A stretch of 64,000 nucleotides of DNA from a virus. Both the position numbers and the translations under genes were made by a program. The notes beneath the pieces are model-generated. The model was given only the letters and a program-made list of their open reading frames with translations, ran no database searches and was not told where the DNA came from. Of this stretch, positions 4,138-7,359 are shown piece after piece (the stretch's first letter is position 1; each line of letters begins with the position of its first letter). Location of the stretch: IMG/VR virus record IMGVR_UViG_3300034122_002094. One strand, 5' to 3'.

Positions 4138-4209
4138 AGCAGCACCTCGGAATCGAACCGAGTACATCTGGGACGGAGGCCCATCGTTCTACCAGTGAAC
4201 TAGTGCTGC
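4138..4209 (-). tRNA. tRNA-Gly(TCC), C33
   Basis: TGGG-CCTCCGT-CCCA; U73. Confidence 0.8.
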
Positions 4210-4443: not shown

Positions 4444-4524
4444 TGCTCAAGGTGGGAGTCGAACCCACACGCACGAAGCACCGCCTTCTGAGGACGGCGT
4501 GGCTACCAGTTACACCACTTGAGC
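4444..4524 (-). tRNA. tRNA-Leu(CAG)
   Basis: CCGTC-CTCAGAA-GGCGG; variable arm. Confidence 0.9.
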
Positions 4525-4526
4525 GA

Positions 4527-4598
4527 TACGCAACCTGGGGATCGAACCCAGACCTCTGGCTTCAAAGGCCAGGATGCTGCCATTGACACCAGTCGCGA
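4527..4598 (-). tRNA. tRNA-Gln(TTG)
   Basis: CTGGC-CTTTGAA-GCCAG. Confidence 0.9.
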
Positions 4599-4670
4599 AC
4601 CGGGAGGTGGGAGTCGAACCCACAGTATCTTGGTCCAGAGCCAAGTGCTTTGCCATTAAGCTACTCCCGA
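4599..4670 (-). tRNA. tRNA-Gln(CTG)
   Basis: CTTGG-CTCTGGA-CCAAG. Confidence 0.9.
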
Positions 4671-4673
4671 ACA

Positions 4674-4843
4674 GGCCATCACGAACACTGCCGGTCTCGA
4701 ACCGGCCCAGGCGACCAAACAGCAACAACCTTCATCCGAGGCCTTGCGGCCAGCGCCCGTTGAGGCGCCTCGTGGTATCTCCACGGATCGAAGTCTGGCT
4801 GCGGTCTTCCCATGCTCCCAACTACACCAAGGCCGTGATGACC
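4674..4843 (-). ncRNA. tRNA-chimera RNA with multibranched domain replacing the anticodon arm
   Basis: 11-bp terminal stem GGTCATCACGG/TCGTGATGGCC, D-loop-like TGGTGTAGTTGGGAGCAT, T arm GCCGG-TTCGAGA-CCGGC. Confidence 0.65.
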
Positions 4844-4845
4844 AG

Positions 4846-4918
4846 CGACTCGTGCGGGACTTGAACCCGCGATCTCCAGCGTGACAGGCTGGCGTGATGA
4901 CCACTTCACTAACGAGCC
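4846..4918 (-). tRNA. tRNA-Asp(GTC)
   Basis: CCAGC-CTGTCAC-GCTGG; G73. Confidence 0.9.
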
Positions 4919-4928
4919 GAACAGAACA

Positions 4929-4999
4929 TTCCTGGCGCCGGGGTCGAACCGGCACTAGAGGGGTTAGAAGCCTCTGCGCTGCCATTACACCAGCCAGGA
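4929..4999 (-). tRNA. Amber suppressor tRNA(CTA), Gln-like body
   Basis: TCCTGGC TG GTG-TAATGGCAG-CGC A GAGGC-TTCTAAC-CCCTC TAGT GCCGG-TTCGACC-CCGGC GCCAGGA A; same register and C31-C39 mismatch as tRNA-Phe in this island. Confidence 0.75.
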
Positions 5000-5034
5000 T
5001 CGCGCGACGGCTTTGATACCGTCGCATCCAGAAC

Positions 5035-5970
5035 TCACATATAGCACCGTTCGATCTTCTTTGTCAACCGATCCAGGTGCTTTTTCTTGATCTTGAAAGA
5101 GACGCTCTCAAGACCGAGCGGATCGTTATCAAGCGCGTTGGCGACGATCTCAGCATAAGACACCAACAGAAGCGTGCAGATGTCTTGCTTATTTGCGGAC
5201 TTGATGAAGCTGTCGAACTCATCAGCTTTCATCCTGTGCAACGTCATGTCCAGGGACATGAGCCGCACCTCGTCGCCGCTACCGAGATCCTGCCAGACCT
5301 GGCTGCTGACCTTCTCGTGCTCCGGGAAGTGTCTGCGGCCATCATCGTCGAGCACCATGCAGTCCGGCTTTCCGCAGTCGTGGAACAGAGTGTAGTTCCA
5401 GATCGTCTGCGCCGGATGACGATGGTCGAGAAGATACTGACCGAACTTGCCAGTCAGCATCGACTCGGGGAGGACTTCAGACCAGATGCCATGCTCTCCA
5501 GTCGAGAGCGCCGAGACGATCGAGAAGGCTCGGTCCTTGACCGACACACCGTGCGCCATGATGGTCTGCTTGTCGTTCTGGCGAGCAGTCTCCATCTTCT
5601 TACACAGGGCCTCTCTGACCTCTTGGCGAGCCTCAGGAGCCACTCGTTTACCAACCAAGGGCAGACGGCCAAGATCGGGTCCCGGCACGTCTGAGGGCTC
5701 GATAGCGAGCGAGGTGGCTTGATAGCCAGTATCGGGCTCACAGAAGAGGATGGCTTTGCGACCGAGCTTCATACACTGATCATACAGCGCGAAGAGCTTG
5801 GCCTCATCAGCCACCGTCAGGACCACGAGCCTGTTGGAGAGCTTCCACCACTCAGTGGGCTGCTCCATCATGCAGTAGTCGATGGCGGCATGAGTTGCCT
5901 GAGCCGTCTGATAGCCCACAGAACCGAGATCCTCTCGAACGATCACATAGAACTTCGTCTACAAATTCAT
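5035..5970 (-). CDS. Peptidyl-tRNA hydrolase (Pth2 family)-HD domain fusion with in-frame TAG at codon 4
   Basis: ATG AAT TTG TAG ACG AAG TTC TAT GTG ATC GTT CGA GAG GAT CTC; KFYVIVREDL..AQATHA..LVVL..EPD Pth2 motifs; LFHDCGKP..HFPEHE HD motif. Confidence 0.75.
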
Positions 5971-6031
5971 CGCATTACCTTCGGTTGGCGATGTGTTGGA
6001 ATGGCGTCCTGGTGTCGGGCGCAGGTTACAG

Positions 6032-6106
6032 TGTGTAGGGAGGGAATCGAACCCTCGACCCCAGGATTAAGAATCCCATGCTCTGACCTAGCTGAGCTAC
6101 CCACAC
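6032..6106 (-). tRNA. tRNA-Lys(CTT)
   Basis: TGGGA-TTCTTAA-TCCTG. Confidence 0.9.
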
Positions 6107-6111
6107 AAAAG

Positions 6112-6193
6112 AGGAAGAGGTGGGGGTCGAACCCACAGCCCTTGACGGGCGACGACTTAGCAAGTCGCTTGATGCGCCAGTTTCCGCTCTTCC
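6112..6193 (-). tRNA. tRNA-Ser(GCT)
   Basis: GCGAC-TTGCTAA-GTCGT; long variable arm; weak D stem. Confidence 0.8.
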
Positions 6194-6204
6194 TTTTGAC
6201 GACG

Positions 6205-6480
6205 TCAGTGCTTGCAGACTACCGCGAGGCAGTCATACTCATCGAGCAGGACAGTGTCGACGCCCTGGAAGGTGATCTCCTTGCCAGTGTGGACCGGGTA
6301 CAGGACGACGTCGCCCTGATGGACCAGATCCTTGTTGACGCCGGGTCCGATCTCCAGCACTTCGCCCTGACGAACGTCGGAGTACATGGGCGCAGCGAGG
6401 AGGATGCCACCCTCAGTCTTCGACTCGAAGGGGATGGGGCGAACGAGGATACGATCGCGGAGCGGTTGCAGATGACTCAT
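6205..6480 (-). CDS. groES: Co-chaperonin GroES/Cpn10
   Basis: LQPLRDRILV..KTEGGILL..GEVLEIGPG..GDVVLY..LAVV; AGGAG SD. Confidence 0.92.
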   Translation of the reverse strand: MSHLQPLRDRILVRPIPFESKTEGGILLAAPMYSDVRQGEVLEIGPGVNKDLVHQGDVVLYPVHTGKEITFQGVDTVLLDEYDCLAVVCKH

Positions 6481-6505
6481 GGGACTCCTTGTTTTTTAGA
6501 ACCAG

Positions 6506-6578
6506 TCTGGGTGACAGGACTCGAACCTGCGTGTTCTGGTTCCCAAAACCAGCCGTTGACCACTAACGTAACACCCAG
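6506..6578 (-). tRNA. tRNA-Pro(TGG)
   Basis: CTGGT-TTTGGGA-ACCAG. Confidence 0.85.
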
Positions 6579-6640
6579 ATGCTGCCGACCGGGTTTTAAT
6601 CGGTCGGCTCTACTCCTTCTACACTTGGTAGATGAGCTGA

Positions 6641-6726
6641 TGGTTGATGCAGGATTCGCACCTGCTGACGTTTGTACAGACGCCGCCTCGTCCGCGAGGC
6701 CTCCGCTACTACACGGCCCTTCAACC
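6641..6726 (-). ncRNA. tRNA-like RNA with 4-nt anticodon loop and long variable arm
   Basis: GGTTGA/TCAACC, GCCTCG-CGGA-CGAGGC, T arm GCAGG-TGCGAAT-CCTGC. Confidence 0.6.
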
Positions 6727-6988: not shown

Positions 6989-7069
6989 TGCCAGAAGGTG
7001 GACTCGAACCACTGACCTGCCCTTGCCCTAGCGGAACGTGGGCCGCTCTACCAACTGAGCTATTCCGGC
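6989..7069 (-). ncRNA. tRNA-like RNA with 15-nt anticodon loop
   Basis: Canonical body GCCGGAA TA GCTCAGTTGGTAGAGC..GTGGTTCGAGTCCAC; loop CGTTCCGCTAGGGCA. Confidence 0.7.
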
Positions 7070-7292: not shown

Positions 7293-7359
7293 TGCCAGGA
7301 GATGGACTTGCACCATCACCACCAACTCCGCGTTAGTGTGCTGCTTACACTACCCTGGC
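7293..7359 (-). ncRNA. tRNA-like RNA with 5-nt anticodon loop
   Basis: GCCAGGG/TCCTGGC, ACTAAC-GCGGA-GTTGGT, GATGG-TGCAAGT-CCATC. Confidence 0.6.

Follow-up and report, generated by a model that had tools for sequence, protein, structure and literature searches.

How can a gene be translated when its fourth codon is a stop? This question is raised by a locus in the window analysed here, that is, the whole 64,000-nucleotide (nt) stretch taken from the IMG/VR virus record IMGVR_UViG_3300034122_002094, which belongs to the 176.7-kb genome of a lake-water phage. On the minus strand of the window lies a gene, denoted here as Pth2-HD, that joins a domain resembling peptidyl-tRNA hydrolase 2 (Pth2) to an HD-type domain; its reading frame begins with ATG-AAT-TTG-TAG, and behind it lies a transfer RNA (tRNA) best read as carrying the anticodon CUA. 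The answer that we regard as likely is a programmed amber gate, in which the translation of Pth2-HD would depend on the phage's own amber suppressor tRNA(CUA). The locus was brought to attention by a sequence-only reading, whose description of the Shine-Dalgarno (SD) sequence, the ATG-AAT-TTG-TAG leader, the in-frame continuation and the GTG at 5946 proved exact when all of them were re-read on the minus strand. The elements involved are the following:

5978-5982, minus strand: Shine-Dalgarno sequence GAAGG, with a 7-nt spacer to ATG 5970 (read directly)
5959-5970, minus strand: the gate, ATG (5970-5968)-AAT-TTG-TAG (TAG at 5961-5959; read directly)
5035-5970, minus strand: whole Pth2-HD coding sequence, 311 codons if the TAG is decoded, with TGA 5037-5035 as its stop
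5944-5946, minus strand: GTG chosen as the start by open reading frame (ORF) callers, inside beta-strand 1; a possible minor alternative start
4929-4999, minus strand: putative tRNA(CUA), 71 nt, anticodon C4967 T4966 A4965, with a C31.C39 mismatch and no encoded CCA

The codons that follow the TAG are ACG AAG TTC TAT, then comes the GTG (5946-5944), and the frame stays open as far as the TGA. The choice of ATG 5970 as the start served by the SD sequence was borne out: GAAGG stands at 7-nt spacing, and the relatives of the gene carry GGAGG or GAGG at the same distance from their ATG.

The in-frame TAG and its conservation

The first matter to be settled was whether the TAG is genuine. A recent nonsense mutation, leaving a pseudogene, or a sequencing mistake has nothing in its favour beyond the bare presence of the stop codon, and we give it practically no credence. 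An identical Pth2-HD protein is present on five contigs; contigs from four lake-water runs cover the TAG site, and two carry a strain that has diverged by about 3%. In this strain, 27 changes fall in the coding sequence, of which 21 are synonymous and six are non-synonymous (and conservative); the tRNA, the TAG and the leader codons are untouched, and upstream just the spacer bases 5976 and 5977 differ. This pattern of substitutions indicates that the gene is under strong purifying selection, and the recurrence of the same sequence in independent contigs and runs, the diverged strain included, rules out, to the extent that sequence data permit, the read error for which the sequence-only reading had allowed; on this evidence, the TAG is not an assembly error. 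It is, moreover, kept among homologues with 45-58% protein identity, which equally argues against a recent mutation.

Eight such homologues were traced to their contigs. The arrangement SD-ATG-NNN-NNN-TAG is kept in six of them (L006-L011) as well as in the window, and is followed by (T/V/I)-K/T-F-Y/H, so that the in-frame stop ahead of the KxYVIVR motif is a shared trait of these homologues. Another of the eight, L013, has ACT where the others have TAG, and its ORF runs normally from the same ATG (MNSTTKFYV). A megablast search of the locus against the phage collection gave no match. Among close lineages, synonymous differences are found in the codons equivalent to TKFY, just after the TAG, which argues that the codons between the TAG and the GTG are translated. 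In an AlphaFold2 model, built on a nine-sequence alignment of the read-through family, the first strand of the Pth2 fold (beta1) corresponds to residues 6-12 (KFYVIVR) and starts two codons past the TAG; a start at GTG 5946 would remove K-F-Y, in agreement with the earlier claim that it cuts into the first Pth2 strand. Likewise, adding TKFY extends the Pfam PTH2 match from profile positions 6-100 to 2-100 and improves its score from 26.8 to 30.8 bits.

These codons bear directly on a different explanation, that of re-initiation, in which the three-codon leader would recruit ribosomes for a second start, at GTG 5946 in the window and at some near-cognate codon in relatives, the tRNA(CUA) being merely an array neighbour with other roles. 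The GTG of the window lies 13 nt after the TAG and could yield an N-truncated protein without any readthrough, which tells against an amber gate, and a canonical in-frame start is found within strand 1 in five of the seven close lineages. In the mycobacteriophage IkeLoa, the annotated peptidyl-tRNA hydrolase (Pth) gene starts at a GTG that directly follows an in-frame ATG-TAG (L003:1462-1470), and a tRNA(CUA), annotated as tRNA-Pyl (L003:2093-2166), lies 250 nt downstream; since the SD suits the GTG, this case is ambiguous. The leader also resembles the bar minigenes of phage lambda, which consist of an SD, an ATG, a few codons and a stop, and whose translation yields short peptidyl-tRNAs that are substrates of Pth, although these minigenes have no in-frame coding sequence after the stop and no link to a suppressor tRNA. 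Against re-initiation, a canonical start is missing from the stretch that separates the TAG from the domain in L009 and L011, in Yersinia phage fHe-Yen9-04 and in Tenacibaculum phage pT24, and gene callers and annotators accordingly truncate or miss the gene (in L009 and L011, the called genes begin 30-35 residues too late). Furthermore, the TKFY codons differ synonymously while the residues that they encode are conserved and form part of beta1; the early stop is TAG in nearly all cases, whereas the focal genome ends its genes most often with TGA; and the TAG-less relative, L013, has no tRNA(CUA) in its locus. With these points in view, re-initiation seems an unlikely explanation of the locus. 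The idea of a near-cognate restart codon right after the stop, as in the first four cases (ACG, ATA, ATT and GTG), was dropped when GTT, AAC, AAT, CTT and others were found at this place.

The neighbouring tRNA and the use of TAG in the genome

An amber gate requires a tRNA that reads UAG, and the anticodon of the neighbouring tRNA had therefore to be examined with care. The element at 4929-4999 matches the Rfam tRNA covariance model with 46 bits, and ARAGORN likewise calls a tRNA there, as the sequence-only reading expected. However, ARAGORN places the anticodon at position 32 and names the tRNA Arg(TCT), which speaks against a suppressor. Were the tRNA indeed Arg(UCU), the TAG would be read, if at all, by host near-cognate tRNAs under limiting release factor 1 (RF1), as a leaky stop with no phage suppressor involved. 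Also in line with this alternative, the substitutions at C31 and U32 of the window tRNA give a U33 in the shifted register as well, and ARAGORN calls no tRNA(CUA) anywhere in the 176.7-kb genome, whose 30 called tRNAs include no other stop-reading one.

Nevertheless, the fold behind the Arg(TCT) label lacks nucleotide 26, its anticodon stem abuts the D stem, it contains an internal A.C mismatch and, at -24.1 kcal/mol as against -26.9 kcal/mol for the CUA register, it is weaker by 2.8 kcal/mol. The register of the Rfam covariance model is the canonical 7/2/4/7/4/1/5/7/5/4/5/7/5/7/1 cloverleaf with the loop UU-CUA-AC, aligned at full posterior probability; in it, the anticodon loop has 7 nt, U33 and a purine at position 37, the orthologues having CU-CUA-AC. 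The window tRNA aligns with the tRNAs that follow the homologous gene at the equivalent place in four related contigs (L007, L008, L010 and L011). ARAGORN calls three of these tRNAs CUA; in L010, where the contig ends within the tRNA, the anticodon was read directly. Over the tRNA alignment, 97% of the cells pair in the CUA cloverleaf and nine pairs vary on both sides, a result matched by none of 500 shuffles; the covariation extends to all four stems, and slid control registers pair in just 28-57%. Moreover, position 20 is C (C or U among these tRNAs) and not the A20 that arginyl-tRNA synthetase (ArgRS) recognizes, and the focal genome already has a separate, regular 75-nt tRNA-Arg(TCT) elsewhere. 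The Rfam model, the folding energy, the covariation and the orthologous tRNAs thus agree in that the tRNA is best read as CUA, as originally proposed; the ARAGORN label, overruled by the Rfam register and by the CUA orthologues, is on these grounds a register error, and an Arg(UCU) tRNA next to a leaky stop is improbable. Pairwise comparison with the other 29 tRNAs of the phage (at most 70% identity) gave no hint of the amino-acid identity of the suppressor.

A suppressor tRNA would also be expected if TAG had been recoded throughout the genome, in the manner of code 15, with Pth2-HD as one gene among many, and phage suppressor tRNAs are known in recoded phages (bioRxiv 10.1101/2021.08.26.457843). 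In the focal genome, however, coding density (derived from a greedy ORF set) is 0.92 in code 11 and also 0.92 with TAG as a sense codon, ORF length is equally unchanged, and 29 of 195 ORFs (about 15%) end in TAG. It follows that the genome is not recoded, as had been stated at the outset, and that the TAG of Pth2-HD is a special case. No other SD-served early-TAG gene was found in the genome: among 31 patterns of the type ATG-(0-8 codons)-TAG-open frame, three have an SD-like motif, and Pth2-HD alone is both long and SD-served. Similarly, the 15 cases in which a TAG splits a pair of same-frame, coding-like segments, each of at least 40 codons, resemble normal ORFs that are neighbours or antisense to one another, and are no commoner than adjacent genes sharing a frame would give. 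General recoding is, in consequence, a very improbable account of this locus. As for chance, an in-frame ATG-(0-5 codons)-TAG leader is found before 8 of 450 ORFs of at least 100 amino acids (1.8%), and such a leader precedes the Pth2-HD family in essentially every lineage examined; judged by these counts, a chance origin is excluded.

Early stops and suppressor tRNAs in related phages

If the tRNA(CUA) is what opens the gate, both should be inherited together, and the sequence-only reading had proposed to test whether they co-occur. This was upheld among the close relatives, since a tRNA(CUA) adjoins the gene in six of the seven close TAG lineages (behind it in the window, L007, L008, L010 and L011, and in front of it in L006), and the TAG-less L013 has a tRNA-Trp downstream in place of a suppressor. 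In L006, the downstream tRNA of the family (L006:1523-1594) is decayed, with an 8-nt anticodon loop and the ARAGORN label '???(aaca)'. An unrelated tRNA(CUA) is found in the same locus at 412-486, just upstream of the gene, the suppressor having apparently been replaced. L013 also has, some 0.8 kb ahead of Pth2-HD, a transfer-messenger RNA gene (L013:280-676) with the tag ANNNSNFSLALVA.

A wider survey consisted of two profile scans of IMG/VR, which yielded 65 loci, mostly on contigs of 100-570 kb (a single-protein scan had found just one locus, HD-only). In about 25 further large-phage lineages, the gene or one of its split Pth2/HD halves is likewise headed by a start codon and, after 0-6 sense codons, an in-frame TAG. 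Every survey locus with a readable Pth2-like gene has a start codon and 1-4 sense codons, then an in-frame stop, and this stop is TAG in all but one. Most of these loci have a tRNA(CUA) within 3 kb, often in two copies; this holds for 14 of the 16 distinct IMG/VR lineages of the first scan and for more of the second. HD-only genes show the same early TAG (after MK, ML, MNT, MKKT, MKNT, MKDT and others), usually without a tRNA in their flanks. Stand-alone HD homologues with a start, 1-7 sense codons and a TAG are those of L028, L031, L032, L034, L040, L043, L045, L047, L050, L052 and L016, the latter with an additional in-frame stop about 45 codons into the open frame. In one clade of jumbo phages (L022-L027, L030, L035 and L053), the gated gene is flanked upstream by an array of as many as four tRNA-Thr isoacceptors and downstream by one tRNA(CUA) gene or two in tandem.

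The early stop is also found in cultured phages, namely fHe-Yen9-04, Serratia phage BF, GAP32 (Cronobacter), pT24 and IkeLoa, so that the module is directly testable. In Xanthomonas phage XacN1, the HD homologue ORF364 has AGAGGA, 8 nt and ATG-AAG-TAG in frame (L059:2487-2509), four codons before the annotated, SD-less ATG start. Two tRNA(CUA) genes with no identifiable target were reported for this phage (PMC5852040), and ORF364 is a candidate for that target.

The survey locus in which TGA replaces TAG, L058, has a well-formed tRNA(UCA) (72.8 bits) just upstream, and this match between stop and anticodon is suggestive. It was, however, downgraded as a clean case of stop/anticodon covariation, because this TGA, which a GTG follows, is at the same time the stop of a 62-codon ORF lying upstream in frame, a circumstance that does not favour a gate. 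In the second IMG/VR scan, a search for further TGA cases returned TAG lineages only. The 62-codon ORF (L058:2789-2977) is rich in Cys, Lys and Arg, and the tRNA(UCA), which has an encoded CCA, lies directly before it.

In addition to the ambiguous L058 and to the GTG and the ARAGORN label discussed above, several observations weigh against an amber gate. An efficient suppressor would extend the 29 ORFs of the focal genome that end in TAG, and no excess of back-up stops was found after TAG-terminated genes, so that the suppressor would have to be weak, brief or tolerated. The C31.C39 mismatch closes the anticodon loop in the CUA register and may lower its efficiency; this mismatch is also present in L007 and is thus not a private defect of the window. 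Finally, no tRNA(CUA) was found in the 3.8-kb locus of L009, nor in the fetched flanks of L009, L018, L039 and most of the early-TAG HD-only loci. On balance, the claim that Pth2-HD depends on amber readthrough is supported by the conserved TAG and by the linked tRNA(CUA), while readthrough itself is what we infer from the two.

The predicted enzyme, the proposed mechanism and known systems

The protein whose synthesis would be gated is made of two domains:

5671-5955, minus strand: Pth2-like domain, residues ~6-100 (Pfam PF01981, PDB profile, Foldseek)
5038-5622, minus strand: C-terminal HD-type domain, residues ~117-311 (invariant His/Asp columns, Foldseek, PDB profile, PHROG)

The model of the read-through protein (311 residues) has a predicted local distance difference test score (pLDDT) of 88.5 and a predicted template modelling score (pTM) of 0.89. 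The match of this protein to PF01981 stands against a cut-off of 23 bits, and all nine members of the family match. The Pth2-like domain gives a PDB profile match to 2zv3 (expect value, E, 6.7e-9), and Foldseek aligns it with 2zv3, 3erj and 1q7s (template modelling score, TM, by target 0.65-0.69; probability 1.00). With these archaeal and eukaryotic Pth2 proteins it shares the fold, the KxxVxVRxDL first strand and the AQxxHA helix. Catalysis by archaeal Pth2 is said, from work in S. solfataricus, to require a Lys in the GKGK loop and an Asp. In contrast, in the alignment to 2zv3 the phage protein has Tyr (and some relatives have His) in place of the catalytic Lys, and an invariant Glu78 in place of the Asp, so that peptidyl-tRNA hydrolase activity is not assured; in addition, an HD domain is fused to the fold. 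Of the identity proposed in the sequence-only reading, the pair of a Pth2-like and an HD-type domain is therefore supported by the Pth2 fold and by the HD motifs, and the identification as a peptidyl-tRNA hydrolase is not, with the catalytic Lys missing. Thus, 'peptidyl-tRNA hydrolase' stands here for a resemblance of the Pth2-like domain and not for a demonstrated activity.

In the HD half, H140, H197-D198 (in HDCGKP), H214, H218, D241 and H245 are invariant across the nine sequences, and the H...HD...D ligand pattern is present. The best Foldseek matches are 3wfo/3wfr/3wfs, described as 'tRNA processing enzyme' (210 columns, E 5e-3 to 2e-2, TM by query 0.38), and the PDB profile match is to these same tRNA nucleotidyltransferase chains (E 0.007); known HD proteins (YfbR, PPX and 1xx7) are matched weakly by Foldseek (E 0.1-0.2), and the half matches PHROG 14850 (E 1e-43). 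No Pfam HD family matches any of the nine members at E up to 1. The helical HD-type region of bacterial class II tRNA nucleotidyltransferases (3wfo-3wfs) is the best structural match to residues ~117-311, sharing the HDxGKP motif and the His/Asp ligands, although the phage protein lacks the nucleotidyltransferase head domain as well as a Pfam HD match. The HD domain of E. coli Cca has 2',3'-cyclic phosphodiesterase and phosphatase activity. Considering the Pth2 fold together with an HD half that resembles tRNA nucleotidyltransferases, the predicted substrate, and the most likely one, would be the 3' ends of tRNAs.

In the mechanism that we propose, ribosomes would initiate at ATG 5970 with the help of its SD, run into UAG as the fourth codon, and continue into the Pth2-like/HD enzyme only where the phage tRNA(CUA) out-competes RF1. 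Lacking a working suppressor, the tripeptide Met-Asn-Leu would be the sole product, and the output of the enzyme would track the ratio of charged suppressor tRNA to RF1. The Pth2 fold might hydrolyse the ester of acylated CCA ends or bind them, and the HD half might act as an end-healing phosphoesterase, by its likeness to tRNA nucleotidyltransferases. The gating could supply a remedy in proportion to the side effects that suppression causes, act as a checkpoint by holding the enzyme back until the phage tRNAs are at work, or let the enzyme feed back on the suppressor. We infer not only the readthrough but also the inserted amino acid, co-transcription, the enzyme's substrate and the regulatory purpose. 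The same applies to two further elements of the sequence-only reading: that low RF1 activity might also open the gate, and that the purpose would be tRNA rescue with a logic like that of release factor 2 (RF2).

A more far-reaching version, which we put forward tentatively and do not favour, would see the tRNA(CUA) as a dedicated regulatory RNA that, with the early UAG, forms a self-contained translational checkpoint or homeostat, the enzyme being licensed once the phage tRNAs have been made, processed and charged. The enzyme would then act on tRNA 3' ends, possibly those of the suppressor itself or of the host tRNA pool. If true, tRNA status and termination would be coupled in a closed loop, by feedback or feed-forward, and the 'orphan' suppressor tRNAs of many standard-code jumbo phages would be explained.

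How does such a module compare with known systems? In phages with a recoded genome, a phage suppressor tRNA reads TAG as Gln ('code 15') (Borges et al., bioRxiv 10.1101/2021.08.26.457843; PMC9523058). There, as proposed here, a phage tRNA(CUA) decodes in-frame TAG in a host with the standard code, and a role in timing gene translation was suggested; in the present case, unlike in those phages, the code is standard, a single gene has the in-frame TAG, always within its first codons, and the tRNA is physically linked to it. The prfB gene, which encodes RF2, likewise has an early in-frame stop (UGA, as compared with TAG at codon 4 here) in a gene for a translation factor, whose synthesis depends on how the stop is decoded. 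However, RF2 synthesis involves a +1 frameshift, the stop is read by its own product and the negative feedback is proven, whereas here the continuation would be in frame, the decoder would be a tRNA, and a feedback from the enzyme to the tRNA is a proposal.

Suppressor tRNAs without known targets have been reported in the standard-code jumbo phages XacN1 (PMC5852040), Atu_ph07 (PMC6102473) and phiKp24 (PMC8386662), the paper on the latter leaving the purpose of the suppressor tRNA open (PMC8386662). Like the focal phage, these phages are large and encode tRNA arrays, a suppressor tRNA and Pth-like genes, but their authors looked for readthrough at gene ends, found no target there and did not describe an early-stop gate. 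A full-text literature search, the coverage of which excludes most subscription journals, turned up work on recoded phages, on the orphan suppressor tRNAs of jumbo phages and on engineered amber switches, and no description of a natural early-stop gate tied to a suppressor tRNA. The module thus offers a concrete, conserved candidate target for the orphan suppressor tRNAs, in the form of an early stop in genes for predicted tRNA-end enzymes. If readthrough is true, it would be a natural counterpart of the amber switches of synthetic biology, with the tRNA key and the stop lock co-inherited, and a new viral way to couple the expression of a translation-related enzyme to the phage's own tRNA supply. 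On the practical side, gene callers systematically truncate or miss gated genes, and ARAGORN can mislabel the suppressor, here as Arg(TCT).

Further features of the locus concern the way in which the gene and the tRNA may be expressed:

5003-5026, minus strand: GC-rich 9-bp hairpin without a U tract, between the TGA and the 5' end of the tRNA(CUA)
6031-6106, minus strand: tRNA-Lys(CTT), 60 nt upstream of ATG 5970 (ARAGORN)

The Pth2-HD gene is thus a member of a tRNA array, in which it stands between tRNA-Lys(CTT) and tRNA(CUA). The hairpin begins 10 nt past the TGA and the tRNA 36 nt past it. A scan of positions 4500-6700 revealed no promoter-like and no credible terminator-like site. The gene and the tRNA array probably share one precursor transcript, so that the tRNA(CUA) would probably be cut from the same RNA as the Pth2-HD mRNA; cleavage by RNase P would leave this mRNA with a 3' hairpin, and the conserved hairpin may serve as a protector of its 3' end. 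In five lineages, a GC-rich hairpin that lacks a U tract stands 2-4 nt ahead of the tRNA(CUA) 5' end, its structure being kept and its sequence not (approximate positions L007:2523-2549, L008:2384-2403, L010:2379-2402, L011:2366-2381 and, in the window, 5003-5026 on the minus strand).

Other features of the window deserve a brief mention. A GroES/Cpn10 homologue (PF00166) is encoded inside the tRNA array, just upstream of the module, at 6205-6480 on the minus strand of the window. A 67-nt tRNA at 7293-7359 (minus strand), which ARAGORN calls Pro(cgg) and which matches the Rfam model with 38 bits, has an anticodon arm with either a 5-nt loop or a 7-nt loop in which G33 replaces U33. Finally, an 81-nt tRNA at 6989-7069 (minus strand), called Gly(tcc) by ARAGORN, has 17 nt where the model expects the 9 nt of the anticodon stem end and loop, so that it may contain an inserted segment or a lengthened arm; the window has another Gly(tcc), of normal form, at 4138-4209.

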